This document shows, one piece after another, positions 19,633 to 48,804 of a stretch of DNA of 64,000 bases. The notes beneath the pieces are model-generated. The model had not been told where the DNA came from and ran no database searches. It was given only the letters and a program-made list of their open reading frames with translations. The position numbers were made by a program, and so were the translations under genes. Within the stretch, counting starts at the first letter, position 1. Each line of letters begins with the position of its first letter. The DNA is from Pseudomonadota bacterium (GTDB lineage Bacteria > Pseudomonadota > Alphaproteobacteria > Rickettsiales > Midichloriaceae). Where the stretch lies: assembly GCA_018242185.1 (NCBI GenBank), contig JAFECK010000005.1, positions 42,373 through 106,372 on the forward strand. Reading direction: 5' to 3'.

Positions 19633-21225
19633 CTACACTAACCGTTCCACCGCCGTTTTAATGAGAGTGATAGTATTAGCCACCCCGTATAGCGCTATGA
19701 ACGAACCGAAACGCGGACCTTGTTCGGCGCCCAATAGAACTTGATAAAGAGCTTGGAACCACAACCGTTGCTCTATTTCATGATCTCTGGCAACAGCATA
19801 GACTATGCTTTGCAGTTCTTCTGCATGCTCAAAACTTTCAACTCGCTCCAATCGCGCCGCAAGGTCTAGCATGGCAATCTTCTCAGCATCAGTAGGATTG
19901 CGGTATTTTTTCTGTGGCTTGACAAAGTCCTGGTAGTAATTAACCGCGCTAGCTACCATTCGCGTTAGCATCGGACACTTCTCCATATTAGCCTTCTGGT
20001 CAAACTTTCTGATATAGCCCCAAATCAACTCACTATCATCAGAGTTACAAGCGTTCACCAAATTTAGTAGTAGTGCATAGTTGATCCCATCTACCTCTAG
20101 ATGCGGCACTTGACCTTTATGTATATGATGCACCGGATTGGCTAAGCGTGCACTCTCATCCTCACTGGCGTGGTATTTTGCCAGATGAGTAAGATATTCG
20201 TCCACGCATTTAGGTATAACATCAAAGTACAGCTTTTTCGCTTTTTGCGGCGACTGATACATAAATAACGCCAAACTTTCCTGTGGGGCATAGCGCAGCC
20301 ACTCATCAATAGTTATACCATTACCTTTAGATTTAGATATCTTCTCACCTTTCTCATCCAGAAATAACTCATAAAACATTTGATGTGGCGGCCTTCCACC
20401 TATAATGCTACAAATTCTGGAATATATAGGACCATTTACGAGATGGTCTTTGCCATACATCTCAAAGTCTACATCAAAAGCAGCCCAGCGCATGCCAAAG
20501 TCTGGTTTCCATTGCAACTTACAGTGGCCATCAATAATTGGAGCCCATATAAGTTCACTAGTGTCTTGATCTTTATACGCTATTTTTTTTGCATTAAGAT
20601 CGCGCTCGACTATAGGCACTTGCAATACTCGGCCGGTTTTCTTACATACCGGCAGAAATGGGCTATATGTAGCTTGACGTTCTGCTCCTAGAGTAGGCAA
20701 CATTACCTGCATTACTTCATCGTAATGCTCTAAAACCTTTACTAACATCTTGTTAAATATACCATTTTTATAGCATTCCGAGGCACTAAAAAATGTATAT
20801 TGAAAGCCAAATGTATCCAAGAATTTGCGCAGGCGAGCATTCATATTATGACCGAAACTCTCATGAGTACCAAAGGGGTCTGGAATTTTAGTTAGCGGTA
20901 AATCTAGGTATTGCTTATAATTTTGCGGGTTCGGAATGGTGTCAGGGATTTTGCGCATGCCATCCATGTCATCAGAAATACACCAGAGCTCAGTGGGGAT
21001 CTTACCTTCTGTCATGCTTATAAACGCGTGACGTACCATACTGGTGCGCGCAACTTCGCCAAACGTACCTATATGAGGCAGGCCGGAAGGGCCATAACCA
21101 GTTTCAAATAACACGAATCCCTTGTCTGGAATGCGATTATTAATTCTTTGGAGAATCTTTTCAGCCTCTTTAAAGGGCCAAGCGTTGCTTTTTAAATACT
21201 TCTCTATGTTATGCATCCAATCCAT
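19633..21225 (-). CDS. lysK: lysine--tRNA ligase, class I
   Basis: 530-aa ORF with the class I LysRS N-terminus (WPFKEAEKIL, ETGYGPSGLPHIGTFGEV) and KISKSKGNG (KMSKS). This is not the class II architecture. Confidence 0.92.
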   Translation of the reverse strand: MDWMHNIEKYLKSNAWPFKEAEKILQRINNRIPDKGFVLFETGYGPSGLPHIGTFGEVARTSMVRHAFISMTEGKIPTELWCISDDMDGMRKIPDTIPNPQNYKQYLDLPLTKIPDPFGTHESFGHNMNARLRKFLDTFGFQYTFFSASECYKNGIFNKMLVKVLEHYDEVMQVMLPTLGAERQATYSPFLPVCKKTGRVLQVPIVERDLNAKKIAYKDQDTSELIWAPIIDGHCKLQWKPDFGMRWAAFDVDFEMYGKDHLVNGPIYSRICSIIGGRPPHQMFYELFLDEKGEKISKSKGNGITIDEWLRYAPQESLALFMYQSPQKAKKLYFDVIPKCVDEYLTHLAKYHASEDESARLANPVHHIHKGQVPHLEVDGINYALLLNLVNACNSDDSELIWGYIRKFDQKANMEKCPMLTRMVASAVNYYQDFVKPQKKYRNPTDAEKIAMLDLAARLERVESFEHAEELQSIVYAVARDHEIEQRLWFQALYQVLLGAEQGPRFGSFIALYGVANTITLIKTAVERLV

Positions 21226-22736: not shown

Positions 22737-23159
22737 ATGCATGGTTCTGTGATTAATGAAATAATGCCAAAAGCAGCTTGGGAAATGCTGCAAAATGAGC
22801 ATGATGCTTACCTGATTGATGTCCGCACCCAAGAGGAATGGCAGTTTGTTGGCATCCCTGATTTGTCCTCCCTTAACCGTGAAACAGTCTTCTTGTCTTG
22901 GCGCTTGTATCCTACAATGCGTATTAACGATGATTTCGCTATACTATTAGAGGAGCGTTTACCAGATCACCATGCTCATCTTCTGTTTATATGTAAAAGC
23001 GGCGCAAGGTCTACAGAAGCCGCTATTATGATGCTGCAACATGGTTATAAGTCTTGTTATAATGTCACTGGAGGATTTGAGGGAGATATGGATAAAAACA
23101 GCCATCGTGGCATAATCAACGGCTGGAAAGCAGCTGGACTTCCCTGGAGGCAAAGTTAA
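22737..23159 (+). CDS. rhodanese-like domain protein
   Basis: 140-aa ORF with LIDVRTQEEW and the active-site loop CKSGARS, plus GGFEG near the C-terminus. Confidence 0.8.
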   Translation: MHGSVINEIMPKAAWEMLQNEHDAYLIDVRTQEEWQFVGIPDLSSLNRETVFLSWRLYPTMRINDDFAILLEERLPDHHAHLLFICKSGARSTEAAIMMLQHGYKSCYNVTGGFEGDMDKNSHRGIINGWKAAGLPWRQS

Positions 23160-24565
23160 TGCTGCATTTACTAAATAGTGTGGAAGAAGCCTCTTCGGCT
23201 AAAGATGAGCTAACTTGGAAGAAAGTGATTGATAGGATGAAGGAAGAGCATGGTGAGGCAGCCTTTAATTCCTGGTTTAGGCACATGCGTCTTACAGGGC
23301 GTAAGGATGGCACCTTATACGTAGTAGTGCCAAGTAGATTTATTAGGGAGTGGGTCATCACTAACTATTACTCCAAAGTTAGACAAGCCCTAATGGAAGA
23401 AGATGAAACTATCAAGATTTTTGACCTGAGAGTGCAAGCACCTTCTGCAAACGAGCAGGACACAGCCACTTCTGATGGTAAAGAGACAGCAGTGGGATTA
23501 GCTAATGCCCACAACGATAACGAGCTAGGCATACAAATAAATCATATCCTGGATTCGCGCTTTACTTTTGATACCTTCGTTACCAGCGAAAGTAACATGC
23601 TTGCATATGCGGCTGCCTATAACTTAGCACAGGGTAAGAGTGATTTGTCTGCTGCCAATTCTCTTTATATACATGGTACAGTGGGTATGGGTAAAACCCA
23701 CTTGATGCAGGCCATCTCCCACTATATAGCCTGCCATTATCCTAATAAACAAGTTCTATACTTAAGCGCAGAACGATTCATGCACCAATACGTGGTAGCA
23801 GTCAAGCACTCTAAAGTGGTGGCTTTCAGGGATAGACTGCGTGCCATGGATATACTTTTGGTGGATGACATACAGTTTCTATGCGGCAAAGCTGCGATTC
23901 AGCAGGAATTTGCCAAAACCCTTAATGCTTTTATTGAAGCGGGCAAAACTGTAGTAGTTGCTGCTGATCGATCACCTTATGAACTGGATATAGACCAACG
24001 CACTAAGTCTAGGCTTTGTGGCGGTATGGTGGTAGGTATTAGCTTGCCGGATTTGGAAATGCGTATGAAAATTATCCAGAGCAAAGTCAGCTTGATTCGC
24101 AAACAGATTGCCGATGATGTGCTAGAGTTTATCGCCACTAATGTTACGTCTTCAGTGCGCGAGTTGGAAGCATCTCTTCATAAGATAGTCGCATATGCTG
24201 AGATTTCTTCGTCCATGATCAGTGTAGGGCTAGCAAAAACAGTACTCAAGGATTGCCTCAATGCGCATGAATGCATAGCCACGCCTGATAAGATATTGGA
24301 AGCGGTGGCCGAGTTTTACGGCATCAGCAGGTCTGATCTTTGCTCAAAAGGCAGGGCTAGCAACCTAGTCAAAGCGCGACAAGTGGCAGCTCTACTATGC
24401 AAGAAGTTGACAGACCTTAGTCTCCATGCGATCGGCGTGACGCTTGGAAATCGCGATCATGCTACAATTATTTATTCAATTAAGACTATAGAAAAACACC
24501 TGCTGTCTGATGGTAAACTCGCTGAGGACGTGGGAAAAATCAATGCTATGATTAGCAGGATATAG
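23159..24565 (+). CDS. dnaA: chromosomal replication initiator protein DnaA
   Basis: 468-aa ORF with Walker A GTVGMGKTHL, Walker B LLVDDIQF, sensor/box VII motifs and C-terminal domain IV (ARQVAALLCKKLT, IGVTLGNRDHATIIYS). Confidence 0.94.
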   Translation: MLHLLNSVEEASSAKDELTWKKVIDRMKEEHGEAAFNSWFRHMRLTGRKDGTLYVVVPSRFIREWVITNYYSKVRQALMEEDETIKIFDLRVQAPSANEQDTATSDGKETAVGLANAHNDNELGIQINHILDSRFTFDTFVTSESNMLAYAAAYNLAQGKSDLSAANSLYIHGTVGMGKTHLMQAISHYIACHYPNKQVLYLSAERFMHQYVVAVKHSKVVAFRDRLRAMDILLVDDIQFLCGKAAIQQEFAKTLNAFIEAGKTVVVAADRSPYELDIDQRTKSRLCGGMVVGISLPDLEMRMKIIQSKVSLIRKQIADDVLEFIATNVTSSVRELEASLHKIVAYAEISSSMISVGLAKTVLKDCLNAHECIATPDKILEAVAEFYGISRSDLCSKGRASNLVKARQVAALLCKKLTDLSLHAIGVTLGNRDHATIIYSIKTIEKHLLSDGKLAEDVGKINAMISRI

Positions 24566-24652: not shown

Positions 24653-25159
24653 ATGCGTAAGGTTTATTTTGCAGGTGCGTACATAAGTGGGGGTGTTGTA
24701 TTTTCACTGTTTGGATGTAACATGACGCTTTCTTCGATCTTGGCTGGCAACTTGACTTCTGAGCAAACAATGCAGCTTAAGCAGCTATCTTGGGGGCAAT
24801 CCTATTATGATGTGCTAGACGCAGTCACGCCAACGTCCGCCTCTTCTCTAGAACCAACAGTTGTTGGATTGGCAGCCACTACCGCTGTACTCGCGGTGTT
24901 ATCTTTGAGTGCTTTAGCGTATGGAAGCTATAATAAAAATAATTTACTTAGAACAGCCGGAATTCTTGGAATAGGAATAACGGCAGCGTTTTCTTCTGCA
25001 GCTGCTTCTGCTTTCCAATATGAGTCTTTGTTTGCAAACCATACCTTGCAACAGGTCATAGAAAGCGCCATGATAGCGACAGTTGTGTTGATAGCGTTCT
25101 CTATAGCATGTTATATGTGTGCATGGAGATCAGAAATTCAGCAAGAAGCCAACCCGTAG
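24653..25159 (+). CDS. small 4-TM membrane protein, family member 3
   Basis: 168-aa ORF with the same layout as 9694-10789 (TPTSASSLEPTVVGLAATTA, AASAFQYESLFANHTL). Its 3' end overlaps the 3' end of the porin gene by 30 nt. Confidence 0.55.
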   Translation: MRKVYFAGAYISGGVVFSLFGCNMTLSSILAGNLTSEQTMQLKQLSWGQSYYDVLDAVTPTSASSLEPTVVGLAATTAVLAVLSLSALAYGSYNKNNLLRTAGILGIGITAAFSSAAASAFQYESLFANHTLQQVIESAMIATVVLIAFSIACYMCAWRSEIQQEANP

Positions 25160-26395
25160 CACAGTACCTCGGTTACCAGGCTCATGCACTTCTACCTCCT
25201 TTAAGCTGAAATGCACTGCATCGGCGTATAGTTTAATCCCATCTGCCATCCTCCAATCAGCACCTAGTGATACTGTATGAGCCCTAGATTTCCATTCAAA
25301 GGTATACTCAAAAATATCGAATACAGTATGCGCTACTGCATAAGCAGCGCTAATACCAATAGGTCCCCGCTGATATGCAACACCAACAGTCCAGTATTTA
25401 CTATTATTTCCAGTCGGGGTAAAAACGGCTGAAGTACCGGTCTTGCCTAAATTGCCATAAGCGGAAGCTATAGTCCATCTTCTCCACCCTACAGCCATCC
25501 CCGCTTCCCATGCTCGCATCCTACGGAATTTGTCAAGGGCAGTGTCGAACTTGGGATTACCTATCTCACCTACTAAGCCAACTTTGAAGCTGAAAGGCCT
25601 GTATTCCCCGGCATACTGAATTCCGCCTTCAAATATATCACGATATTTACCGCCAGAAGCTCCAGTCATTCCGTCAGTGGCGTTATATTTAAATACGTTG
25701 TGCATGGCATAGCTCACCGTGCCAAACGATTCGATATCAGGGGTATAGCTAATACCAGCCTGGAAGCCATAATAGCGTGGTGTGTAATAAGTAATCTTTG
25801 AAGCGTTCACGCTTTTTATCCCTAACAGCGCTATATTATTAGTGTAAAGCTGGGGTAGCAGCAAAAACTCAAAAGCTATGTTAGATTCGTTCACACCATC
25901 CATTGGATTAACCCATTTCCACCAGTCACTATCGATACCACCACCATCAATACCACTATGGCCTCTGGAGATTTGTGTAGGGCTCACATGCAATGCATGC
26001 GATGCACCGGTATAGCTACCAGCTTCCACACGGCCAAAATTTCCTTCAAAATACACCATGGTTTGCTGCGCGTCAAAGAAGTCATCATAGTGATCATCTG
26101 AGGTGTCGGCATTAAGCGCTATCAGACCGCCGTATTTAAGGCCGCATCCACAACTATCCCTGATGCCATCAGCACGCAGGATCAGCTTTGTCTCGCTAGC
26201 AATCGCATTATTGCGCCGTCTCTCAGAAGAAATGTTGGTGGGGTTTGTATGACGAAAGATATTGGCTTCTGAAACGTAACCCCAATATGCATCTTGGTAC
26301 CCGCCAAAAGTAATAGTAGGCACGCTATCTGCAATAGCAGCACTGACAGTGCCAAATGCGGTGAACGCGGCAAGTATAGAGCTTATCTTTTTCAT
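25130..26395 (-). CDS. outer-membrane porin, paralog 2
   Basis: 421-aa ORF with a signal peptide (MKKISSILAAFTAFGTVSAA), YGGLIALNADTS, FGRVEAGSYTGA and a terminal Phe (GFLLNF). Confidence 0.75.
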   Translation of the reverse strand: MKKISSILAAFTAFGTVSAAIADSVPTITFGGYQDAYWGYVSEANIFRHTNPTNISSERRRNNAIASETKLILRADGIRDSCGCGLKYGGLIALNADTSDDHYDDFFDAQQTMVYFEGNFGRVEAGSYTGASHALHVSPTQISRGHSGIDGGGIDSDWWKWVNPMDGVNESNIAFEFLLLPQLYTNNIALLGIKSVNASKITYYTPRYYGFQAGISYTPDIESFGTVSYAMHNVFKYNATDGMTGASGGKYRDIFEGGIQYAGEYRPFSFKVGLVGEIGNPKFDTALDKFRRMRAWEAGMAVGWRRWTIASAYGNLGKTGTSAVFTPTGNNSKYWTVGVAYQRGPIGISAAYAVAHTVFDIFEYTFEWKSRAHTVSLGADWRMADGIKLYADAVHFSLKEVEVHEPGNRGTVLRVGFLLNF

Positions 26396-26655: not shown

Positions 26656-29600
26656 TTACACCTTATCTATAAGGCTCACATATTCCCCGCTGGAGCTGGC
26701 GCTGATATCTATCCGTTTGTTTATCGCTTCATTTAGAAATGAGTATTCTATGGTCGAGAGTATACCGCTTAACAAGTGCGTAGTGAGCATGATGGCTAGA
26801 GTTATCTCTGGCGAGGAAAGTATAGTACTGCTTACATACTTGGGCAATAAAGTCTCAGCTGCGTATTGCAGTAAATACTGCTGAGCTACGTAAGCAAAGC
26901 CAGAGACTGCACCTGCTGCCATACCCGAAAGTAAGGTAGTATACTCGCCCTCAAATTCTCGCAACGCGACCTGCTTATCATCCTGGCTAGAAGTCTGCAT
27001 TATGCCACCAAATACCGCGCCTAGAACCATACCTATGCTCATGTAGACCAGTAAAGTTTGATAATTAAACGCACCGAGCACATTTTGCGATAGTAGGGAA
27101 GGAAGAGAGAAAGCCGTACTCTCTGCAATACCTGCTTGCACCAACACATCGGTAATAAATGATGGCACAAACAACATGGTAGAGCTCATGCACAGCATAA
27201 AGAAGACCCGATTACCTGCTATAGCAGCACGGGTCTTCTTATCCTCAGAGTCAGTAAATACGGCGGCTATGCCTATAAAGATAGCGTTACCAAGCAGATC
27301 AGTAAATTGATATGGCGCTGTAAGTACTCGAAAAAACAGATTACTCTGCTTTGTAGCAGTATCTTCATAAGCCACTCTCACATTAGCCTCACGAGCCTTC
27401 AGATACTTGGCTAGGCGCACCTCTACATTCGTGTCAAGCTGAGATTTTATATTCTGAGGTAAGTCTTCTATCGCTTGCGTAACCAATCGCTTCCATTCTC
27501 CAGCAGCATATTCCGCAGCCATTTCTCGATCCGCAGCAGTATCGGCCTGGAAATAACGCGCAAGCTGATCCTGTAAGACCCTGTTCACAAATGATAATAG
27601 CTTGAGCGGTGACTCATAATCTGCAGGTTGCGATCCCTTTTGTTGCAAGCTTTTTTCTTTTATATCACTAAGTCTGTTTAAGAGATGAAATGTCTCAAAT
27701 TGGAGATATTGCCAAATCTGATCTGCTAGCCTTGATTTATCTCTAGATAGACGGCTTTTTATAGAATTACGTGCCCCCAATTCTCTAACGTCTTCTACTT
27801 TAACAAGCTTAGGACGGTAGTGCTTGACCTGACCAGGAGCTTTCTGTGCCTCATACTTATTAAGCGCATCTGCTATTTCTGTATTAATCAAGATAAAGCC
27901 AGCGCGGCCTTCTTCAAAACGACCATGCGTCCTGCCGGCACCTTGTACAGCTCCACTCTTAGTAATACGCTTGGCGCTAAGCATTATAGTGGTAACACGG
28001 GTGGTGATTGGGTTGCGGTTAGAGTCTAGCAATGGTTTGTTATCAGCACCTAATACTAATGCCGGCTTGCTATCAGTACCGCGGGCCATTGTGCCTTCTG
28101 TACCTATGGTAATAACGCCCAACTGTGACATCTGCTTGACCACCTTTGCGTGTAGATCTTTTTGCTTGTCCCTAGATTTGCGGCGCCCTAGCGCCTCTCG
28201 TGCGTTTTTATAATTCTTATCATCATAAGAGAGCAGCTGCCCATTCTCATCGAGATCTTTCACCATACCCTTAGTGTAAGTTTGTATCGCTGGGAATAAT
28301 TTTTTTAAGGCAGGATTGTCATCTATCCTAGTTTTCAGAGCATTGTACAGATCCTTGACCTGTTTTTCCGTCTCACATATCAGGTTCAAGGGCTCCCCTC
28401 GACCTGTATAGTTCAAAGGCTGCTGATTAATCTGCATAGCAGTCTGAATGAGTGTATCTATTTGTTCTTCTACATTATTGACTAGCAATATGTGGTTATT
28501 TTTGCGGTATGCTGGGGCTTTTTGATGTGCCGGCACCTCAAGGTTTTCAAACAATCCTTTAACCCGCCATTCCTCATGAGTTGGATACTTGATTAGCGTA
28601 TATTTCTGATGCGCTATAAACTCCTGCTCATCGTATTCATTGCCCATGGTGGCGCTGTAGCCTTCACAAGTCTCAAAACCAAAATCTTCTAACGCAGCGA
28701 TATCGGGTATACTAGCCACTCCAAGCAGCTCTTCCTGTGCTGAACTCTTAGCTATGGTATTGCTCAAAGGCTCAATAACAAAGTGACGCCTCTGACCCTC
28801 AGGCTTATCTCGCTCTGCTTCATTAGCCCATAGATGCCAGAATTGCTGCATTCCTCGATCGTAAATAATGCTACGATTAGACTTATTAAAAGTGCCATTA
28901 ACAATAGCAACTTTGCGGTATTGCGTCACTATTGTTGGACTATGTCCCATATCATTCCAGTCATATTCTGGCACGTCGTAGTAGTCTACCCCTGCCTCCC
29001 ACCTGTTCATAACGTGCTTAGAATCGATCGCTGCCTCCACTAGTGAGTGGATAGCTTCCCGATCTAACTTGCCAGCAGCAGCTATCTTGAGCTCTTGTCT
29101 AGAATCCGCTTCATCCGTGGTGCACAGCATTGCCTTAGCTTCTCTAACAAGAGTCAAGTCGTCCTCAAGGCTATCCTTAATCTTTGGGTCGTTAGTCGCG
29201 CGTACGCTGGTATATAATGCTGCAATTTTGCGGTCTAGGAAAAGGAGTAGGTTATGGTGGTTTTGCTTGGCAGGAAAGCTTCTCTGTGGTTGCTCTTTAT
29301 ATGGAGCATATAAAAGCTGCATGCTGTGTGCATCGCTTTGCTCCCTCTCCACCATCTCAACAATGAGGTATAGCAACCTCTCCCACGCTGCGGTGCTCTT
29401 AGTAGAAACTTCACGTTTTGCTAGACGCTGTTTTACTGGTGAATGCGCATCTCTATCTATCTCATCCACCTTTAGCCTAATACGCATAGGTTTGCCATCA
29501 TATGCAAACCTTTCGCCTTTAGCTTTTTGATTTAGGCGCCACGTAATGACATCTGAGAGTGTACCATAGTGGATGTCATAATGTCGAAATTCTTCCATAG

Positions 29601-32600
29601 TAGTCCCAAGCGGCGTAATCGGAGTATTGGAAGATTTTAATTCCAGATAGTTATGGAATTTTCTTTGCCCTAAAGCGTCGCGAGAAGCCAATTCATAAGT
29701 TGAAGTGGATACCACAACCTTGGCACCAAGCAGGGCATCAAAGGCATCACTCAGCGCTATAGTTATAGTTTTACCTTGCCCGGTATTAAAGCCGTGGAAG
29801 ATGTTCTTTTTGTCATTCAGCTTGGAGTATAATGGAGCGATCAGCTGTAACGGTCGTGGGAATTGACCGATAGTGCGGTGCCTAGCCACTGCTATATAAG
29901 CAAGCAGCGTAGTAATGGTGTCAGGGTTCTTTTCGATAGCGCAAGCCTTTTTCGCTGCTTCTAGGCCTGTAACGAAATCTGCATCATTCTTCTTCATAAC
30001 GTTGGTTGTAACCTCAGTTATGATACGATCCCAACCGTTGATCAGAGTCTCTATACTGTCTTCATTTAGTGGCTGCCAGGCAGTATCGGCATTCTCTCTG
30101 ATCAATATTTTATTTAGCTTGGCTCGCAATTTTATTTTATCATCTGCTAAATTCTGCTTCTGATCTGCACCGCTGGCCCAGCCGAACTTAATCTTATTAG
30201 CGGTGCTACTGAAAAATTCCGTGGATTTCCCCTCACAATACTCTTTATTTAACTGAACATTTTCTATTATATCTCTTTTGATTTGGAGCGAGTGACAGAT
30301 AGGCGGGGTCACCAATTTTTCCAATGCAGGTAGTGCTTTTTTATTAAGATTTGTGATTTTATCCACGAATTGCGGTAACAATGCTATTATTTCAGCTATA
30401 GATAATTTGGTTGTTTCCGAAGCGTCAGGAGTATCAGGGGTTTTCTCAGGGTTGGCAAACTCATTGCGCAAAATCTGATCTAGAATTCTGATAATTTGTA
30501 GATTGGTTTTTTGGTTATAATTTCTAGAGACTTTATCTAGCAATAAGCACATAAACTCGGGAGCAGTAGGCTGCTTGTTTTTACCCAAATAACGCTCCAC
30601 TGAGAAGACTAAGTTCATTACTAGATCTGGCGCCTCACTCAGCATATCCATAAAGCACTGCAAGGGCTTTGTTGAATCTGTAATCTGCAGTTCATCAGTA
30701 AACTGAGGTTTAGTAAATGCCGCAACATATTTGACCAGCAACATCTTATCTTGCTGTCTGCATACTCTTTCCAATATCTCAAAAAGCTTCAGTGGTATAT
30801 GTTCTATCTTCTGCTGAATAGCTGTACTGGAGGAATTAGAAGAGTTTGAGCTATTCGGCTCTTGTTTTTTATCATAACGGCGTAGATCCCGCAATTGATA
30901 TAGGTTATATGCAGCTTGCACTAGATCGCTAAAGTTATAACCTTTAATTTCTTGGGCAAAGGTAGCAAACTTCATTACTGCACTGGAAAAACGCTGGAAA
31001 TCTGCTTTATATAGATCGTGATCATACTGTTGCTCTAGCTTTCCATCCTTGTTTACGAACATCTTTGAAGGCGTTGCCCACATGTGCGCTGTTCTCGCCA
31101 TTTTTTCCACCAGGTTGCTAGGGGTCATCATACGCTCTGGTTTCTTGAACCGCTGCATTATGCGCATAGCCTTTATCGTATTCCATACAAATTCTGTGCC
31201 GGAAGCATGCTGCAAATCAGAATCATAACTTCGTTTTATCAACTCGATATTACGCATATGCCCCTGCATATTCATAGGCTGCAGTCGGATTAACGTAGCT
31301 AGTTTACCCCTTATTTGTGTATCTATTTCATCCATAGTAGTATGAACACGCAAAAAGCTATATGCATCACCTTGCACCAGCTCCCCTAGCATGGTAGGGA
31401 TATAGGCTTTAGCATTATCACCTAACTTCTCAGCCCTACCGCTCTCATGGTGCAGAACTGTCTGGTGCGGCATAAAGCAAAGTAGGTAATGGCGCAATAC
31501 TATAGCAGCGATACGCTGTTTCTCTAGCTCAGTGGCGCCCCATGTGTCAATCGTGGAGACAGCCGTAGCTATGATACTACGCACTTCTTGTTTTGCTTCC
31601 ATAGCAGTTTCTATTGCTGTCTTAGAGGAAGATGAAGAAGATAACAGCTGTTTCCACTGCTTATAGCTTTGGCCTGCTATTGTTATCTCTGGTATCATAC
31701 CAGCCAATAATTCATCCCAAGAGATCTGCTCGGAGATTAAATTAGTCTTGAGCAGTAGATCTGGGAATAGGCTTGTCATCGCTTTCTTGCACTCTTCAAA
31801 GGTAACTTTGCCCTTCAAAGCATCACAAAACTGTGCATACGGCACTTGCTTAAAGTTTTGCACTTGCTCCCAGTCTATGTCGTCTAACCATAGATTGACG
31901 TGCTGCATGGTTTGTAGAGCTGTGCTATTTTGCAGCATCTGTGTTCTATCCATATTGTGATCAAAGCCGGATAAATCCCGTTTCCAATAACGTGGATCTT
32001 TGGGCAAAGTGTCGTTGATACACAGTGCGCATAACGAGAGAAAATGCTTATTGTTATATTGGTCATTCATCAAGTTAGCTTTAGCACGATCTTTAGTAAC
32101 TTGATCCGGCTCCAAGTGTTGACCAGCCCAATATGGATCGACTGGGTAGTGCATATCCCCATTACGCAATGGAAATCCATTCATTATAGCGGGAATAGAG
32201 TGATCATAGCGCTTGGCGGCAAACCATATAGCAAGGCATCTAGATGGTAAGCTAAGATAGGTTATTTCTTCAAAATGCATCTTCAGCATATACCGTGTGC
32301 GTTGCAAGGTATTTTTCATACTCTTCATCAAAGAAGCGCCGGTTATTCCTGAATTCTTCAAATGATCAACTAAGGCACCAGAAGCTTCGCTCTTGATATC
32401 CATGGTATCCAGTGCTCTTTTGATATTGACACGCGTCACCCCTGGTGCTTCGCTGAGTTCCTTTAAGGCTTGCATGAAGCGCTCAAACTCTGCCTTCACT
32501 TCAGCCCTTGCTTCATCAGTAATGCTATGGCTATCATATTTGAGGTTGCTCTGGAAACTCATCGCATATTCCATGAAGAATTCCAGCACCCTGTCTACGT

Positions 32601-35600
32601 ACTCTTGCTTGAAGCCTGTGATAATCCTATAATACCAACGCCTGCTCCATTCAATATCTGCGGGTGGGATGAGCTTTTCATCAGTTGTATTTAACCTGCG
32701 GGAATATAGATTCCGCCAATATGGACCGTTGTATAGATGACGCCAATCACTGAGTCTAGTATCCTTACCATAGTACGCTAGTTCACCTACGTCTGGTAGC
32801 GGTATATTAGCCCCTATTTTATATCTCCCTATGCCTGAATCAGGCGCTAAGTTCATCTCAGGCGTAATGATTATAGGATCCCATATGCCGTGTAGTAATT
32901 CGTTGCTCTTCGATTCTGCGGTGCCCTCATATGTTTTAGCTAAGTCTAGCATATAAACATCACCATGCGGAGCCAAAGAACAACGCATTGGGTGTATAAC
33001 TAGGGGATCCTTAGTGGAACGATTACTGTTCATGATCTCCACTTGCTTCTCTATGGTAGTAGCATTAGGACCAACTGCTTCTAAAGCTTCCTTATATTCA
33101 GGCTCAGCATTTAAGGCGATAAGTTGTTGTTCTAGTATCTGCGGGCCTTTAACGGCTGCATGGTCGAGGATACGGTATAGCCTATAAAGGTCGGTCTGCA
33201 CATTACCACTAACGCCATCCAGGATGATGCGACGCCTGCCATGCACATCAAGATCTGTGGTACGTCGTACTAAAGTTTGTTGTAACTTACTAACCAATGC
33301 ATTATCTCGATTGCTATGAGTATCATTAGTCATCTCTTTAAAGCGTATCCAGAAATACTCGAATGCTTTCATCGTAGTCTGTACATCTGTATTACCGGTA
33401 TAACTTGATCTCGCGTCACCCGCAACAGCAGGGCCGCTAGCGCTATTTAGTACTGCTTCTAAGAACTGCAGTTTAACCTCTAGTTTCCTAATTTCCTGCG
33501 GAGTGCTATCCTTAACTGTTCCCTGGCTTTTAGAGGAAGATGGCTGCTTGGATGCATCAGAAACACTCACCTGCTTAATTTTTTTTAGGTCTTTGATTAA
33601 GTAGCTGAGTTTCTCCAACATATCAAAACCTGCGAGATAGCTCCAGTCCTGGCGTGAGGTATTGCGGCCGATACAGTTAATTAATGCATTGTAGATATTG
33701 CTATCCAGCTCTCTTATAGCTAGTAAATGTGAGGCAAATCCTGCTATAGCTTCCATGCCATATACTGCAACGATGGATAGGATGTTATGGCGCACTTTAA
33801 CCCTGCCGCACACATCATGTATAACTTCACGTATACGGTTATTTTGATGACCAACAGGCAACTTATCATATAGTGCATCGATAAGAGGGTGTGCTGGCGG
33901 ATTAGCCTGTAAGCCACGGTAGTAGTTGATGTGCTGATCGAGTGGATCAGTACCTGGAATAAATCCAGCGTGAGAAATTGTGTTTGGCCGTTTCTGATCT
34001 TGCCTCAATGGTGCTGGATCATAAAGTGGAGGCGCGTATGTATTGACTGCTCGGTAGTGCGCAGCCAGTGATTGCTGCTTAAATTGATCTGTGTGTCGCG
34101 TGTTAGCTAAAGGATCAATGCGTAACCCATTTTCGTTAGCCTCTGTATCTTGTTTGTATTGCTTAAGATTCCAGCTTAATGTGCGGATTTTATGTGGGGT
34201 ATTGGCTGCCTCGCTTGGACGGGCTTTATATTGATGGTTTGCTGCAGTGTATTTCTCGACACGAAATCCAAGCGGTAAGTTATGGTAATCTATCCCGCCT
34301 TTGAAAACACAGTAATTATTGCAGGCTAGCGTTAGTACAGATTCACTTATATACCAAGAGTTTATTCCCATCTCTAACGTGTATTTATGCATGAACATTT
34401 GCCAGCTGATACCAGCAATGTCATCATCATTCCCCAACACATCTACGTGCACAGGAGCAGCGCCAGTCAACCCAGACATAAATCTCACATATTGCCGGGC
34501 AACATAGTTATAGGCCTTCTTGGCGAGCACTGCATCTGCCCGGTTATTAGATTGCATGATGGTTCGCAGCTGCGTCATCAAGTTAAAAGGCTGACCCGTG
34601 CTGCAGTCTTGCTTTATTTGATCGAAACACGTTATACCTAGTGGCAGAGAATCACAATATTCTGTAAATATACTGACAATCAGGGTGTGGGTAGCCTTAT
34701 TTAACCTTTCTCCTTTACTTGAACCCCCAACAATACCTAAGTGCGTTACAAAGATATTACTTTTTTCATGCCCTTGCGTAAGCGCCCAACTTTTTTCATC
34801 TGGGTTTGCAGTTAGCAGAGTAGGATCCCACTCAGCAAAGCTACCTATAGTTTGTGATTCTTGCCCATTTGGTCTTTCTGTATGGATTATTGGTATACCA
34901 AGAAGCTCATCAAGCCTATAGACTTTATTTGTTTCTGCATCACCCATATCGGCGTCTCCTGGACCTGATAAGGCGGTTTTGCTCTGATATTGATGTTGCA
35001 ACTGATGCTCTGCCTGATGTTCTATAGAGAAGTTTTGTTGACTCTCCACCTGTATATTCATCTGCCCCACAGTTTCTACAGAGACATCAACATTTACTTC
35101 TAACTTCGCATTGGTAATGCCGGCTCGGTTTACGGCATCTTCCATGTATTGACCCACCACTTGTGGACCATGATCACCATCATTTTGTATCTTAGCTTCT
35201 GATGTATTCTCTAGATTAATATCTACCTTTCTTTCAAACCATAGCTGTAATGCTATCCTTCTGCTAGGCCATATCGTCTGTTGCTGCACTATACCATTGG
35301 CATCATCTAAGCAAATGGCCACATATAGCTTGCCCAAGTAGTGATGGCGTGTATGTGATTCATCTATCTTCTGCAACCGTTGATTTAATTCTGCATACTG
35401 TTGTTGATCTGTACAATGTAGCTCTAGAGACTGAGTACCACGGTCAACTATATGCTTAAGGAACGCTTCGAAAGTGCAGTCATTGCCATATCTATAAGGA
35501 TCAAAGGGGTGACGCGTAGGAAGTTTAGCTTTTATTACCTCCTCATTTAGGATAATCATTCCTGGTTCGATATTACGTAATATCAAAGACTGAGGCCATA

Positions 35601-36060
35601 CAATAAAAGATTGTGCCCACGCTGCCATGCCAACCGGGACGCCATTGCTACTACGGGTAGATATTTCCAACTCGTCTTGAATTAGGCAACATATGCCTTC
35701 AAAGAGGAAGCTAAGCTTGTGGGCAGGCAAGACCTCTTTTATGGCATTGATTATCTCACGATTGTTGATGAATAATGGCTGCGCATTGAATGTAGTAGAA
35801 ACATTCAATGCAGCAGAAATATTCAAAGTAGTAGATGGCACCCCGCTCCAGTCAATTGGCTTAAAAGTGCCTAAGTCTAGTTCTACTGCATTCAACCGGC
35901 GACCTGAGTAAAACAGACCCCAATCAACAACACTAGTGGCACTCACTATTTGTTGGAGACGGCGCAGGCCCTTCATGTCTTTGATAGACAAGGTATTTTC
36001 TAAAGTCCAGCCATCTCGATTAATAAGAGATAAACCACCTTCATATAAAAGTATTCTCAT
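26656..36060 (-). CDS. giant protein 1 (3134 aa): SecA-like DEAD motor plus C-terminal multi-TM block
   Basis: Uninterrupted 9405-nt ORF that is colinear with 36888-46220. It has SecA-like motifs (NTGQGKTIT, VVVSTSTYELASRDA, YDIHYGT, VDEIDRDAHSP, TMARGTDS, GRTHGRFEEGRAG) and about 5-6 hydrophobic helices in the last ~300 aa. Confidence 0.85.
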   Translation of the reverse strand: MRILLYEGGLSLINRDGWTLENTLSIKDMKGLRRLQQIVSATSVVDWGLFYSGRRLNAVELDLGTFKPIDWSGVPSTTLNISAALNVSTTFNAQPLFINNREIINAIKEVLPAHKLSFLFEGICCLIQDELEISTRSSNGVPVGMAAWAQSFIVWPQSLILRNIEPGMIILNEEVIKAKLPTRHPFDPYRYGNDCTFEAFLKHIVDRGTQSLELHCTDQQQYAELNQRLQKIDESHTRHHYLGKLYVAICLDDANGIVQQQTIWPSRRIALQLWFERKVDINLENTSEAKIQNDGDHGPQVVGQYMEDAVNRAGITNAKLEVNVDVSVETVGQMNIQVESQQNFSIEHQAEHQLQHQYQSKTALSGPGDADMGDAETNKVYRLDELLGIPIIHTERPNGQESQTIGSFAEWDPTLLTANPDEKSWALTQGHEKSNIFVTHLGIVGGSSKGERLNKATHTLIVSIFTEYCDSLPLGITCFDQIKQDCSTGQPFNLMTQLRTIMQSNNRADAVLAKKAYNYVARQYVRFMSGLTGAAPVHVDVLGNDDDIAGISWQMFMHKYTLEMGINSWYISESVLTLACNNYCVFKGGIDYHNLPLGFRVEKYTAANHQYKARPSEAANTPHKIRTLSWNLKQYKQDTEANENGLRIDPLANTRHTDQFKQQSLAAHYRAVNTYAPPLYDPAPLRQDQKRPNTISHAGFIPGTDPLDQHINYYRGLQANPPAHPLIDALYDKLPVGHQNNRIREVIHDVCGRVKVRHNILSIVAVYGMEAIAGFASHLLAIRELDSNIYNALINCIGRNTSRQDWSYLAGFDMLEKLSYLIKDLKKIKQVSVSDASKQPSSSKSQGTVKDSTPQEIRKLEVKLQFLEAVLNSASGPAVAGDARSSYTGNTDVQTTMKAFEYFWIRFKEMTNDTHSNRDNALVSKLQQTLVRRTTDLDVHGRRRIILDGVSGNVQTDLYRLYRILDHAAVKGPQILEQQLIALNAEPEYKEALEAVGPNATTIEKQVEIMNSNRSTKDPLVIHPMRCSLAPHGDVYMLDLAKTYEGTAESKSNELLHGIWDPIIITPEMNLAPDSGIGRYKIGANIPLPDVGELAYYGKDTRLSDWRHLYNGPYWRNLYSRRLNTTDEKLIPPADIEWSRRWYYRIITGFKQEYVDRVLEFFMEYAMSFQSNLKYDSHSITDEARAEVKAEFERFMQALKELSEAPGVTRVNIKRALDTMDIKSEASGALVDHLKNSGITGASLMKSMKNTLQRTRYMLKMHFEEITYLSLPSRCLAIWFAAKRYDHSIPAIMNGFPLRNGDMHYPVDPYWAGQHLEPDQVTKDRAKANLMNDQYNNKHFLSLCALCINDTLPKDPRYWKRDLSGFDHNMDRTQMLQNSTALQTMQHVNLWLDDIDWEQVQNFKQVPYAQFCDALKGKVTFEECKKAMTSLFPDLLLKTNLISEQISWDELLAGMIPEITIAGQSYKQWKQLLSSSSSSKTAIETAMEAKQEVRSIIATAVSTIDTWGATELEKQRIAAIVLRHYLLCFMPHQTVLHHESGRAEKLGDNAKAYIPTMLGELVQGDAYSFLRVHTTMDEIDTQIRGKLATLIRLQPMNMQGHMRNIELIKRSYDSDLQHASGTEFVWNTIKAMRIMQRFKKPERMMTPSNLVEKMARTAHMWATPSKMFVNKDGKLEQQYDHDLYKADFQRFSSAVMKFATFAQEIKGYNFSDLVQAAYNLYQLRDLRRYDKKQEPNSSNSSNSSSTAIQQKIEHIPLKLFEILERVCRQQDKMLLVKYVAAFTKPQFTDELQITDSTKPLQCFMDMLSEAPDLVMNLVFSVERYLGKNKQPTAPEFMCLLLDKVSRNYNQKTNLQIIRILDQILRNEFANPEKTPDTPDASETTKLSIAEIIALLPQFVDKITNLNKKALPALEKLVTPPICHSLQIKRDIIENVQLNKEYCEGKSTEFFSSTANKIKFGWASGADQKQNLADDKIKLRAKLNKILIRENADTAWQPLNEDSIETLINGWDRIITEVTTNVMKKNDADFVTGLEAAKKACAIEKNPDTITTLLAYIAVARHRTIGQFPRPLQLIAPLYSKLNDKKNIFHGFNTGQGKTITIALSDAFDALLGAKVVVSTSTYELASRDALGQRKFHNYLELKSSNTPITPLGTTMEEFRHYDIHYGTLSDVITWRLNQKAKGERFAYDGKPMRIRLKVDEIDRDAHSPVKQRLAKREVSTKSTAAWERLLYLIVEMVEREQSDAHSMQLLYAPYKEQPQRSFPAKQNHHNLLLFLDRKIAALYTSVRATNDPKIKDSLEDDLTLVREAKAMLCTTDEADSRQELKIAAAGKLDREAIHSLVEAAIDSKHVMNRWEAGVDYYDVPEYDWNDMGHSPTIVTQYRKVAIVNGTFNKSNRSIIYDRGMQQFWHLWANEAERDKPEGQRRHFVIEPLSNTIAKSSAQEELLGVASIPDIAALEDFGFETCEGYSATMGNEYDEQEFIAHQKYTLIKYPTHEEWRVKGLFENLEVPAHQKAPAYRKNNHILLVNNVEEQIDTLIQTAMQINQQPLNYTGRGEPLNLICETEKQVKDLYNALKTRIDDNPALKKLFPAIQTYTKGMVKDLDENGQLLSYDDKNYKNAREALGRRKSRDKQKDLHAKVVKQMSQLGVITIGTEGTMARGTDSKPALVLGADNKPLLDSNRNPITTRVTTIMLSAKRITKSGAVQGAGRTHGRFEEGRAGFILINTEIADALNKYEAQKAPGQVKHYRPKLVKVEDVRELGARNSIKSRLSRDKSRLADQIWQYLQFETFHLLNRLSDIKEKSLQQKGSQPADYESPLKLLSFVNRVLQDQLARYFQADTAADREMAAEYAAGEWKRLVTQAIEDLPQNIKSQLDTNVEVRLAKYLKAREANVRVAYEDTATKQSNLFFRVLTAPYQFTDLLGNAIFIGIAAVFTDSEDKKTRAAIAGNRVFFMLCMSSTMLFVPSFITDVLVQAGIAESTAFSLPSLLSQNVLGAFNYQTLLVYMSIGMVLGAVFGGIMQTSSQDDKQVALREFEGEYTTLLSGMAAGAVSGFAYVAQQYLLQYAAETLLPKYVSSTILSSPEITLAIMLTTHLLSGILSTIEYSFLNEAINKRIDISASSSGEYVSLIDKV

Positions 36061-36251: not shown

Positions 36252-36674
36252 ATGTACAACGCTTGCCTTCACATGATGCAACAGTTACAGGGCACGCACC
36301 TGAAGAGATGTTCTAACACAAATAGAATTATTAATGCAGAATCTGCGTCACCTGTGTCACCTACCCCCAAGCAACTCCCTGTAGCAGTGCTACCAATGAC
36401 GATTACTCCTCTGCAACGTAGAATCAGGATTAATAACTTGCACTTATCCAAGGATTATTATCAGATGCTTTATGACGAACGTGCTGGTATATATCAGTAT
36501 GATGCTGGGATGAGCCAGGATGATGCTGAAGCCAAAGCTAGAAATGACGTGTTGAACCTATGGTTGGAGCATGAGCACGTCCTCGTCGGACATCAAGGGC
36601 CGCTGTCCGTGCAGTTCAAGAAGGATAATTACTCACGGGGTGTGCAGCAGCTGCAGAAATACGGGTCCTGGTGA
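36252..36674 (+). CDS. small conserved protein with ERAGIYQYD motif, copy 1
   Basis: 140-aa ORF whose C-terminal ~85 aa are paralogous to 50276-50536 (ERAGIYQYDA, ARNDVLNLWLEHE, F.KDNY.RG.Q.LQKYG.W). The true start may be the ATG at 36396 (MTITPLQ). Confidence 0.65.
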   Translation: MYNACLHMMQQLQGTHLKRCSNTNRIINAESASPVSPTPKQLPVAVLPMTITPLQRRIRINNLHLSKDYYQMLYDERAGIYQYDAGMSQDDAEAKARNDVLNLWLEHEHVLVGHQGPLSVQFKKDNYSRGVQQLQKYGSW

Positions 36675-36887: not shown

Positions 36888-39800
36888 TCATCCTTCTATA
36901 AGGCTCGCAGTGTTTTCACCAACGCCAGCGCTCATATGCTTGTTTATAGTCTCATTTAGGAATGAGTACTCTATAGTCGATAATATACCGCTTATCAGGT
37001 GTGTGGCGAGCAGAATAGCCAGCGTTGCCTCAGGTGATGACAGAATAGTGCTGGTTGCATATTTGGTTAATAGAATTTCGGTGGCGTATTGCAATGAATA
37101 CCGCTGTGCTGCATATAGCAGGCCAGATATGGCACCAGACGTCACACCGGAAAACAATGCTGAGTGAGATTCGCCAAATTGTCTAAGCGCGATTTGCTGC
37201 TTATCTCGGCTCGAAGACTGCAGTAGCCCACCAAATGTGGCGCCAACTATCATACCAATACCCATATATACCAGCATTGTCTGATATTCGAACGCACCAA
37301 GCACATAATGCGACAGCGGAGATGGCAGGGCTTTCACAGCAAGATCAGTAACATTAGCCTGCTCTAAGACACCAGTAACCAGGGATGGCACAAACATCAT
37401 AGTCGAGCTCATAAGGAGCATAAAAAACGTGCGGTTACCCACCATGGCAACACGCTTTTGCGTCGCTTTGGACTTGGTAATGACGCTTGCTGTACTCATG
37501 AAAATAGCATTGCTAGCCACATCAATAGCATAGTACGGCGCGGTAATTGCTTTAATAAAAGTACTATCCTTCTTCTGAGGGATGCTCTTGCTCTCAGGAA
37601 GTACAGGCTGAACAACATGCCGGGCCGCTAGATGTCGATCAAGGCGCTCTTTTATGCCGTCTATACGAATCTCTGGTCGTAGAGGTATTCCGGGCGCCTG
37701 GTTAACCAATCTAGCCCACTCCCCAGCTGCATATTGGACAAATTGCTCGTTAGTGGCATCAGGGTTATCCTGGAAGTACCTAGAAAGCTTGACATGCAGC
37801 AACCTAGTAACAAATGGCAACAGGTCCAGAGCCTGACTATAATTTATAGGCTTCCCACTGCCTCCTTCTTGCCGCTCTGCCGCCTTGTCGGCCAATTCAC
37901 GCACTGCACCTATGAGGCGGAAGGTCTCATACTGTAGGTATCTCCACACTCTATCTGGCAATCTCGATGCTTCACGAGCTTGGCGGTTTTTAGCAGCATT
38001 ACGCGCTGCCAAGTCTACAACGTCAGGCACACTAATGTTATTCTCATCATAGTGACGTTTTTGTACCTTTTGCTCTTCGTGTTCATTCAAGCTATTTGCT
38101 ACATCTGAGCCAATCAGGATAAACCCGGCGCGCCCACCCTTGAAACGACCGTGTGTTCGTCCTAGCGACTGGGTAGCAGCGGGCCTGGTTATGCTCTTAG
38201 AGCTCAGTACTATGGTGGTGAGGTTCGTCGTCATTGGTGCTCTGGTCACCGGATCTTGCAGCTGCTGCCCCGTGTCATTTAAAATCGGTATAGACTTAGC
38301 ATCAACACCACGCGCCATGGTGCCGATTGTACCTATGGTGATTACCCCTAGATGCGACATTTGCTTTACTACCTTTGCATGCAGGTCCTTCTGCTTATTG
38401 GTATTCTTCTCCAGTCCCAGAGCTTCGCGGGCCTTCTTGTAATTCTCATAGTCATAGGAGTATAGCCGTCCATCTTTAAGCTCATGAACCATGCCTTTAG
38501 TGTACGTCTGTAGAGCTGGAAATAGTGTTCTTAGCTGCGGGTTATCCCTTAGCTTCTCTGCAAGTTTCGCGTATAGAGCCCTAACCTCCGCTTCTGTCTC
38601 GCATAGCAAGTTCAGAGGTTGCGCCTGCTTCGTGAGTGCGATGGTTGGCTTGTTGATCTCTATGGCGGTCTGTATTAACGCGTCTACTTGAGCGTCTAAG
38701 TCGTCCACTATAAGCACATGGCCGTTCTTATTCTTGGGATCCGCATCCCTATGGGCTTCCACATCAAGGTCAGCAAAAAGCTCCTTAGATTCCCACTCCT
38801 CATGTGTAGGGTACTTGATCAGCGTGAACTTCTGGTTCGCTATAAACTCCTGTTGATCGTGTTCGTTACCCATAGTTGCGCTGTAGCCTTCACAAGTCTC
38901 GAAACCAAAATCTTCTAGTGCAGCTAACTCTTCAATGCTCTGTACCCCCAGCAGCTCCTCCTGCGAGCTACTCATAGCGATAGTATCGCTTAGGTCATCG
39001 ATTACAAAGTGGCGTGGTTGTGCACCAGGTTGAGCCTGCTCCTGTGCATTAGCTCGTAGATGCAAGAACTGCTGCATACTGCGGCCATATACAATGCTAC
39101 GGCTAGCTTTACTGAATATGCCATCTACAATCGAAACCTTGCGGTGTTGTGCGGACATAACTGGGCTACGACCAAGGTCGTTCCAGTTATATTCCGGCAC
39201 ATCATAGTAATCCACACCCTGTTTCCAATGTGCCAGAGCTGCTTTTGAGTCAACAGCTGCTTCCACTAATGAGTGGATCGTGTCCCTGTCCAACAAGCCT
39301 TTAGCAGCGTTTTCCAGCTCTTTCTCCGGTCTACTATCCGCCTTAGGACAAAGCATGCCTTTAGCCCTTTTTACCAAGGCCAGGTCATCCTCAAGCTTGA
39401 TCTTATCTCGTGGATCGACTGCGGCCTCCACCTCTGCGCTCAATTTCTCTTTCTTGTGCTCCAGGAAGACTAGCAGATTGTGGTGGTTATCTTCCGCAGT
39501 AAAGCCCTGCTGTGGGTCTCTACTGTAAGGTTCATATAGTAGCTGCCACAGATTTTGCTCGCTCTTCTCAGTATCCACCATCTCTACAATCAGCTCTAGC
39601 AGCCTCTGCCACACTGCGGCACTCTTGCCAGCTTCTCCACCATTGCTAAGCTCCTGCCGTTTTGCTAATCGTTGCTTGATAGGTGAATGCGCGTCGCGGT
39701 CCATCTCATCCGCTTTTAGCCTGATACGCATATCCTTAAAGCTCGCATTTTCTGACTGCTGTTTCATGCGCCATAGAATTATATCAGGGAGCGTGCCATA

Positions 39801-48800: not shown

Positions 48801-48804
48801 GGCT

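Follow-up and report, generated by a model that had tools for sequence, protein, structure and literature searches.

Introduction

Few molecular motors are understood as well as SecA, normally a single, free-standing protein that is essential. Here we describe two tandem genes, each 9.4 kb long, that encode paralogous proteins of ~350 kDa (giants 1 and 2), each with a SecA-like ATPase far from the N-terminus and a bundle of hydrophobic segments at the end of the chain. The genes lie in a 64,000-nucleotide stretch of contig JAFECK010000005.1 (positions 42,373 to 106,372; hereafter the window) from a metagenome-assembled genome (MAG) of an uncultured intracellular alphaproteobacterium.

SecA motors in giant proteins have already been noted in the literature, and the proteins considered here are not a new category. 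Most of the giant (>30,000 amino acids, aa) proteins of the Omnitrophota, and some from actinobacteria, contain divergent SecA_DEAD and preprotein-binding domains (West-Roberts et al., bioRxiv 10.1101/2023.11.21.568195). The SecA_DEAD domain of these giants lacks the scaffold and wing, adjoins transmembrane regions and is present in addition to a normal SecA; it has been proposed that the motor helps in export of the giant protein itself (bioRxiv 10.1101/2023.11.21.568195). An architecture cluster defined by PF07517 was also recovered among long Omnitrophota proteins in a 2026 preprint (10.64898/2026.06.07.730766). Giants 1 and 2 share with this class a SecA_DEAD motor with no wing/scaffold match, a chain of several thousand residues, and transmembrane segments next to the motor; the normal SecA alongside is shown, for the family of the giants, only in a relative. 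In contrast to giants 1 and 2, the Omnitrophota proteins have many transmembrane helices together with carbohydrate-active, peptidase and adhesion domains, and come from free-living predatory bacteria. The giants described here have ~3100 aa and no other recognizable domain, and come from an intracellular alphaproteobacterium. Their likeness to the Omnitrophota proteins is one of architecture.

A second point of comparison comes from Amoebophilus, where ‘SecA-like helicase-related domains’ were listed among host-directed effectors, with Ulp1 and SbcC-like ATPases (Zhang et al. 2012, PMC3482391). Compared by description only, the APD1/APD2 effectors of Amoebophilus asiaticus resemble the giants in that they are large proteins with a SecA-like ATPase domain; they belong to an amoeba endosymbiont and are predicted to act on the host, and the repertoire of Ulp1 peptidases and SbcC-like ATPases is echoed by a 1368-aa protein in the window. 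However, the Amoebophilus effectors start with a signal peptide, a lipobox and the APD domain, and their variable domain is C-terminal (PMC3482391), whereas the giants have no signal peptide and end in a transmembrane bundle.

The third comparison is with SecA2 (Mycobacterium, PDB 4uaq; Clostridioides, PDB 6sxh), a second paralogue that exists beside the essential SecA and is among the structural matches of the giants. Unlike the giants, SecA2 is free-standing and ~760–790 aa long, according to the NCBIfam models.

A SecA-like motor in two tandem giant proteins

Giants 1 and 2 share 51% identity over aa ~195–3130, as far as the C-terminus. In bins of 200 aa, identity is 23% in the first bin and 39–62% in the later ones. 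A third paralogue (P0001; MBS0236217.1, 3191 aa), encoded on another contig of the source MAG, is 54% identical to giant 1 over the motor. Hence the MAG contains at least three divergent copies, and ~28 kb of its genome is devoted to the family. Giant 2 is an exact match to GenBank MBS0236030.1 (MAG ‘Proteobacteria bacterium’, JSS50_01685). An exact-sequence look-up returned no record for giant 1, whose deposited start codon or gene call may differ from that of the open reading frame (ORF) used here.

Twelve peptides resembling SecA motifs had been quoted for these proteins in a sequence-only reading of the window, and all twelve were located, in the order given, across giants 1 and 2 (Table 1). 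The distance between DEID and GVITIGT measures ~440–450 aa, shorter than the ~500 aa claimed. The module itself is present in both proteins, as claimed, but its homology extends beyond the limits originally assigned to it.

Profile searches place the motor with SecA. In giant 1, the Pfam family SecA_DEAD (PF07517; gathering score, 24.6 bits) matched aa 2014–2171 with 39.6 bits (E 4.8e-10), and was the sole significant family there. In giant 2, it was the top family, with 35.1 bits (E 1.1e-8). The generic DEAD family (PF00270) reached 17.6 bits, in giant 2 only, below its cutoff of 26, and we rejected assignment to a generic DEAD-box or superfamily 2 (SF2) helicase class. Two other profiles named in the sequence-only reading, SecA_PP_bind (PF01043) and Helicase_C (PF00271), matched neither giant. 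Among 16 full-length relatives (see below), SecA_DEAD was found in all 16, P-loop_SecA (PF21090), which covers the second nucleotide-binding domain (NBD2), in eight, and SecA_PP_bind in two. These 16 proteins have no Pfam family outside the SecA or helicase types. Pfam gave no P-loop_SecA match in either giant; that their NBD2 is of the SecA type is indicated by a profile alignment covering SecA residues 482–594 and by the conservation of motifs V and VI.

Direct comparisons gave the same picture. All 20 chains matched in a PDB sequence search of the module were SecA. BLASTP of the giant motor against Escherichia coli SecA gave 29% identity over NBD1 (E 1e-8), with a second, collinear match at motif V. 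When a profile built from 61 module sequences was aligned to E. coli SecA with hhalign, the probability was 100% (E 1.2e-43), with 605 columns running from query position 8 to 786 and from SecA residue 62 to 707. This alignment spans NBD1, the final part of the preprotein cross-linking domain (PPXD), motif III and NBD2, and continues into the scaffold helix.

The domain map of giant 1 (Table 1) uses SecA domain names and boundaries that we take to be established from SecA structures. The motifs follow the order seen in SecA (PF07517, PF21090; PDB 6itc, 5eul, 1tf5, 2fsf), namely Q, I, Ia, Ib, II, III, V and VI. As in SecA, a domain is inserted between motifs II and III, and the two-lobed motor is followed by a long helix. 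The flanks of the inserted domain are conserved, with GVDYYDV aligned by hhalign to DVDYIV of SecA and GMQQFWH to GLHQAVE. In the AlphaFold (AF2) model described below, the inserted domain is a mostly helical sub-domain with a β-hairpin. A 52-residue helix (aa 2755–2806) comes directly after NBD2, and a second helix follows it (model residues 716–767 and 777–799).

Table 1. Features of the giant proteins and of the surrounding window. Window positions count from the first nucleotide of the stretch.
Feature	Window position	Strand	Protein position or length	Basis or remark
Giant 1 gene	26656–36060	−	3134 aa	ORF list and translation
Giant 1 SecA-like module	27547–29925	−	aa 2046–2838	hhalign, AF2, Foldseek
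Giant 1 NBD1, first part	29404–29925	−	aa 2046–2219	Pfam SecA_DEAD, conservation counts
Giant 1 Q motif residue			Q2072	in NBD1, first part
Giant 1 peptide FHGFNTGQGKTITIAL	29752–29799		aa 2088–2103
Giant 1 Walker A, TGQGKT	29767–29784		aa 2093–2098
Giant 1 motif Ia, STSTYELASRD				in NBD1, first part
Giant 1 peptide VVVSTSTYELASRDA			aa 2115–2129
Giant 1 motif Ib, IHYGT				in NBD1, first part
Giant 1 peptide FRHYDIHYGTLSDV			aa 2158–2171
Giant 1 peptide LKVDEIDRDAHSPVK			aa 2196–2210
Giant 1 motif II, DEID	29455–29466		aa 2199–2202
Giant 1 inserted domain	28765–29403	−	aa 2220–2432	position of SecA PPXD
Giant 1 NBD1, return	28588–28764	−	aa 2433–2491
Giant 1 motif III, GYSATMG (SAT)	28648–28656		aa 2469–2471	positions of SAT
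Giant 1 NBD2	27844–28587	−	aa 2492–2739
Giant 1 peptide GVITIGTEGTMARGTDSK			aa 2648–2665
Giant 1 motif V, MARGTD			aa 2658–2663
Giant 1 motif VI, QGAGRTHGR			aa 2706–2714	GRTHGR, aa 2709–2714
Giant 1 peptide GAGRTHGRFEEGRAGFILI	27886–27942		aa 2707–2725
Giant 1 scaffold-like helices	27547–27798	−	aa 2755–2838
Giant 1 C-terminal hydrophobic bundle	26731–27315	−	aa 2916–3110	five segments
Giant 2 gene	36888–46220	−	3110 aa	tandem paralogue of giant 1
Giant 2 SecA-like module	37770–40163	−	aa 2020–2817	Pfam SecA_DEAD
Giant 2 peptide MKTGSGKTIA			aa 2067–2076
Giant 2 Walker A, TGSGKT	39999–40016		aa 2069–2074
Giant 2 peptide ISTSTYDLASRDA			aa 2093–2105
Giant 2 peptide YNIHYGT			aa 2137–2143
Giant 2 peptide ADEMDRDAHSP			aa 2170–2180
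Giant 2 DEMD			aa 2171–2174
Giant 2 SAT			aa 2447–2449
Giant 2 peptide TMARGVDA			aa 2634–2641
Giant 2 MARGVD			aa 2635–2640
Giant 2 QSLGRTHGR			aa 2684–2692
Giant 2 peptide GRTHGRFKGGRAG			aa 2687–2699
Giant 2 C-terminal hydrophobic bundle	36954–37538	−	aa 2895–3089	glycine zippers at aa 2989 and 3025
Degraded integrative element	46402–50191			directly upstream of giant 2; includes a small helix-turn-helix-like ORF
Integrase, split in two ORFs	47032–47574 and 47752–48231			Arm-DNA-binding domain in the former
AlpA-like ORF	48597–48800			in element remnant
DUF7146 protein	48805–49560			in element remnant
Overlapping ORF	49490–50191			in element remnant
Small ORF between the giant genes	36252–36674	+	140 aa
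Paralogue of the 140-aa ORF	50276–50536	+	86 aa	14 kb away, at end of element remnant
Ulp1 and ATPase protein	50820–54926	−	1368 aa	4.6 kb from giant 2
Porin_4-type outer-membrane porin genes	8240–9571 and 25130–26395	−		one immediately downstream of giant 1
DnaA gene	23159–24565			2 kb from giant 1
Isoleucyl-tRNA synthetase with DUF5915 domain and class I lysyl-tRNA synthetase	10868–14026 and 19633–21225

We counted conservation of the active site over 61 aligned family members. The glutamine of the Q motif, the glycine and lysine of Walker A, the glutamate of motif II, and the glutamine and first arginine (the arginine finger) of motif VI are present in 61/61. Nearly invariant are the two aspartates of the motif II DExD (56/61 and 60/61), the threonine of motif III (58/61) and the arginine of motif V (59/61). 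In motif VI of giants 1 and 2, a one-residue insertion shifts the second arginine (GRTHGR versus the usual GRxxR). The motor copy is complete and, judged from these residues, apparently active.

The predicted structure points in the same direction. Residues 2040–2840 of giant 1 were modeled by AF2 from a 40-row alignment, yielding a predicted local distance difference test (pLDDT) score of 86.1 and a predicted template-modeling (pTM) score of 0.86; with an alignment of giants 1 and 2 only, pLDDT was 35.6. In a Foldseek search of the PDB, ranks 1–32 were all SecA or SecA2 (the latter at ranks 11, 14 and 19), with E values from 9.7e-21 to 1e-7 and ~800 aligned columns. The template-modeling score was ~0.5, as expected for a flexible multi-domain chain. 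The first matches other than SecA were MDA5, DinG and RIG-I at ~3e-7, about 13 orders of magnitude weaker. In a library of viral structures, the best matches (E 9e-10 to 1e-7) came from giant viruses, among them Hokovirus, Fadolivirus, Harvfovirus and Hyperionvirus. They are large proteins with DUF3638, in some cases named ‘ubiquitinyl hydrolase 1’, and rank above ordinary viral helicases. The link to DUF3638 has no counterpart at the sequence level, Pfam DUF3638 having no match in the giants, and we found no mechanistic insight in the literature on DUF3638/DUF3645 and PF07517.

These comparisons bear on whether the giants might be membrane-anchored nucleic-acid helicases or translocases that have regained or retained a generic SF2 activity on RNA or DNA. 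The SecA motor is itself of the SF2/DEAD-type fold, DEAD, Helicase_C and ResIII match some relatives weakly in Pfam, helicases follow SecA in the structural ranking, and the best viral structural matches are of the SF2 type. However, SecA lies far above helicases in every sequence and structure comparison, and the scaffold helix is kept, as is the insertion point peculiar to SecA. We consider helicase activity highly improbable.

SecA was the best match of the giants in every search, by sequence or by structure, at levels well beyond chance, and we are almost certain that the ~800-aa module descended from SecA. The SecA affiliation put forward in the sequence-only reading is borne out by the profiles, by the closest solved structures and by the retention of the catalytic Walker A lysine and DExD glutamate in relatives. 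The giants nevertheless differ from SecA in several respects. The motor lies at aa ~2046–2838 of a 3100-aa protein encoded in multiple copies, the domain at the PPXD position is larger and largely helical, module identity is ~15–19%, there is no SecA_SW match, and a hydrophobic C-terminus of their own is fused to the motor.

Relationship to housekeeping SecA and SecA2

The sequence-only reading had held that a motor so placed is not the housekeeping translocase, a view that the following data uphold. Against the models for canonical SecA (TIGR00963, NF009538), the giants score ~25 bits, ~3% of the cutoffs of 800–814. Against those for SecA2 (TIGR04221, TIGR03714, TIGR04397), they score 13–23 bits versus cutoffs of 725–1085. 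Both equivalog assignments were rejected; that the SecA and SecA2 models are the only ones listed by NCBIfam, at scores so far under cutoff, indicates homology rather than equivalence. The wing/scaffold family SecA_SW (PF07516) has no Pfam match in giants 1 and 2 or in the 16 full-length relatives, and no C-terminal tail of the SecA type was detected in the giants.

No other SecA-type gene lies within the window. In Legionella adelaidensis NCTC12735, a family member (WP_058461170.1, also P0025; 2513 aa) occurs beside a canonical secA that is 64.5% identical to that of E. coli. These data support the view that the giants are a divergent paralogous offshoot of SecA, distinct from the housekeeping translocase.

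Could a giant simply be the SecA of the organism, or an accessory SecA2, with extra domains? In favor, RefSeq calls one relative (WP_367606858.1, 2780 aa, Legionella sp.) ‘preprotein translocase subunit SecA’. Yet the equivalog scores, the lack of a wing/scaffold match in the giants, the three divergent copies in one genome and the canonical secA beside a giant relative in L. adelaidensis all argue otherwise, and we regard this identity as extremely improbable. The RefSeq entry in question corresponds to P0085 of Legionella sp. W05-934-2 (locus L004, 8001–16343). Its SecA label is probably an over-annotation that stems from the NBD1 match, and illustrates the annotation hazard posed by this family.

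Regions flanking the motor

The ~2000 aa upstream of the motor gave no match in Pfam, the PDB or PADLOC. In PDB sequence searches, neither this region nor the C-terminal 334 aa has a meaningful match, the sole match (FlhA, E 0.69) being noise. No internal repeats were found in the giants. The N-terminal ~2000 aa are lineage-specific, with no detectable relatives outside a small subfamily (see below). At the N-terminus of giant 1, nothing resembles a hydrophobic signal segment: hydrophobicity peaks at 0.67 over the first 60 aa.

The C-terminal hydrophobic bundle begins ~80 residues downstream of the motor. In giant 1, its segments are moderately hydrophobic, with 17-residue Kyte-Doolittle means of 1.8, 1.82, 1.99, 1.51 and 1.70. 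GxxxGxxxG glycine zippers occur at aa 3010 and 3046. Both zippers are kept in the two paralogues, and the C-terminal region is conserved in the subfamily. Most lysines and arginines of the loops lie before segment 1, between segments 1 and 2, between segments 3 and 4, and in the tail. From the sequence, an even number of spans, with motor and tail on the same side of the membrane, is plausible.

The position of the motor, immediately before the transmembrane bundle, raises the idea that each giant is a resident inner-membrane protein whose motor docks on SecYEG or on its own helices and inserts or exports part of the giant, or a partner. With no signal peptide, the bulk of the protein would start in the bacterial cytoplasm, and the same role has been suggested for the Omnitrophota giants (bioRxiv 10.1101/2023.11.21.568195). 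Several features of the chain do not fit, however. The loops between hydrophobic segments are short (~15–30 aa). Loops of that kind do not normally need SecA-type pushing in the Sec pathway. The 2000-aa region upstream of the motor is free of hydrophobic segments that would have to be exported, the motor occurs in some family members without a hydrophobic C-terminus, and, with no SecA_SW match, the SecY-engaging regions of SecA are not evident. We consider such a role in self-biogenesis unlikely, albeit less so than the other alternatives to host interaction that we weighed.

Family and distribution

An exhaustive phmmer search over 1.84 billion representatives returned 84 proteins at E ≤ 1e-3, including giant 2 and P0001. 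Two groups can be told apart. The subfamily P0003–P0008, with 28–32% identity over the motor, shares the hydrophobic region at the C-terminus and two N-terminal islands (aa 770–985 and 1640–1737) as well. In some 70 others, mostly of 2000–4400 aa, only the motor is common; in these, an iterated profile finds it over NBD1, the middle region and NBD2. Three short matches (P0048, P0052 and P0069) are SecA-like proteins of ordinary architecture that carry SecA_SW. Two scans of a genome-contig collection gave no confirmed relative.

Besides the Holosporales-like source MAG, named members come from Legionella sp. W05-934-2, a Legionellaceae MAG and L. adelaidensis. In the Legionella giants WP_058461170.1 and WP_367606858.1, the same module, over NBD1, the middle region and NBD2, is found 1500–2200 aa from the N-terminus, and the genes are single, without partners. 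Unlike the motor, the N- and C-terminal regions of these proteins are unrelated to those of giants 1 and 2, and at the C-terminus they have a hydrophobic hairpin of two segments or no hydrophobic part at all. More generally, many of the Legionella-type members end in two adjacent hydrophobic segments, and others have none. In the literature, we found no description of the Holosporales/Legionella family.

A word-indexed protein search missed the motor, although giant 2 and the 54%-identical paralogue are in the same collection. Very long proteins seem to escape the index, so that giant-protein families may be systematically underrepresented in its results.

Proposed function

In the reading that we consider the most likely, the giants would be membrane-tethered polypeptide motors used in host interaction, a statement that, taken in full, we regard as evenly poised between right and wrong. 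The motor would lie flat on a membrane, held there by the C-terminal helices. As ATP is bound and hydrolyzed between NBD1 and NBD2, a clamp for polypeptides would open and close in the manner of SecA, and from such a clamp it would follow that the motor grips, unfolds or threads a protein chain at the tethering membrane. The N-terminal 2000 aa may supply target recognition or scaffolding. The giant would act at the symbiont-host interface, exported into a membrane of the host or vacuole or else fixed in the envelope of the symbiont, and not in general secretion. We favor this location because the paralogues, both tandem and dispersed, diverge fast, a mobile-element remnant flanks them, operon partners are lacking, and the carriers are protist-associated intracellular bacteria. 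Host interaction is also suggested by the DnaA affinities of the source organism, by the ankyrin-repeat and RasGEF genes beside relatives, and by the SecA-like domains of Amoebophilus effectors, whose Ulp1 and SbcC-like companions recall the 1368-aa protein.

Several points weigh against this proposal. We identified no secretion signal in the giants and no secretion-system genes within the window, and at 350 kDa, with five hydrophobic helices, either giant would be unusually large for a secreted protein. The idea of a polypeptide clamp is borrowed from SecA on the strength of homology, and the domain at the PPXD position, where SecA_PP_bind went undetected in giants 1 and 2, is heavily remodeled. 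Across the wider family, not every member has a hydrophobic C-terminus; that of L. adelaidensis lacks one. A restriction to intracellular bacteria rests on few named members, as most relatives are metagenomic. Finally, we found no experimental work on any such protein in the literature.

A bolder variant is that motor and glycine-zipper bundle form an autonomous protein-conducting machine that dispenses with SecYEG, with motor and channel in one polypeptide. Sitting in the symbiont envelope or the host vacuolar membrane, it would pull host proteins in or push bacterial proteins out. We think this improbable; if true, however, it would be a previously unrecognized protein-translocation route derived from the Sec system. 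The sequence-only reading had likewise suggested that the giants could be self-contained devices for ATP-driven translocation or remodeling, with which their anatomy would be compatible.

The case is well supported that a whole SecA motor has been captured into giant proteins, with NBD1, NBD2, insertion point, scaffold helix and intact active site. In the subfamily of giants 1 and 2 it is wired directly to a membrane anchor, and the same motor occurs in dozens of giant proteins, some from Legionella, so that proteins of this kind are widespread. What job a SecA motor performs outside the Sec translocase is a question for which L. adelaidensis NCTC12735 offers a cultured, tractable carrier. Should the giants prove to act on the host, the effector repertoire of intracellular bacteria would grow by an unusual, ATP-driven activity; should the motor cooperate with its own helices, it would be a new translocation device.

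Genomic neighborhood

Directly upstream of giant 2 are the degraded remains of an integrative element (Table 1). No tRNA gene is present within the window. The 140-aa ORF between the giant genes and its 86-aa paralogue at the far end of the element have in common the pattern ‘...ERAGIYQYDA...ARNDVLNLWLEHE...DNY.RG.Q.LQKYG.W’, and this pair may mark mobile DNA that carried or duplicated the giants.

Beyond the element, the 1368-aa protein has an N-terminal Ulp1/C48 peptidase domain fused to an ABC-type ATPase and DUF4435, and matches a model of the fused PARIS-like AriAB (E 2.9e-14). It is unusual for a defense-type ATPase to be joined to a deSUMOylase-like peptidase of the eukaryote type.

Glycine-zipper helices occur in pore-forming proteins. 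With two such zippers present, the degraded element (split integrase, AlpA-like gene, DUF7146) directly upstream and a PARIS-like AriAB ATPase gene nearby, the giants might be thought to form a conflict or anti-phage system, in which a large sensor ATPase on a mobile island is coupled to a glycine-zipper effector that disrupts membranes. PADLOC, however, returned 0 families for both giants. The relatives are single genes in ordinary chromosomal neighborhoods, not defense islands, and the named members come from intracellular bacteria, where low phage pressure is expected. We judge an anti-phage role very unlikely.

We inspected the contexts of six relatives and found single genes with no conserved neighbors, and an explanation through operon partners was dropped on these grounds. 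Several of the six are close to genes for ankyrin-repeat or RasGEF proteins. At locus L002, genes for 325-aa zinc alcohol dehydrogenases with the same domain content (8966–9943 and 17398–18375 of that locus) lie on either side of the gene for P0003 (2442 aa), which looks as if it had been inserted into or between a duplicated gene.

As for the source organism, DnaA from the window is, among named relatives, nearest to that of the Holosporaceae bacterium ‘Namur’ (46%), followed by a Rickettsiales endosymbiont (41%) and Midichloria (38%), indicating an alphaproteobacterium. Because the DnaA gene is so near giant 1, the giants may sit near the replication origin. The window also encodes two porins (Table 1). 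In our judgment, its isoleucyl-tRNA synthetase with DUF5915 domain and class I lysyl-tRNA synthetase fit an alphaproteobacterial intracellular lineage.

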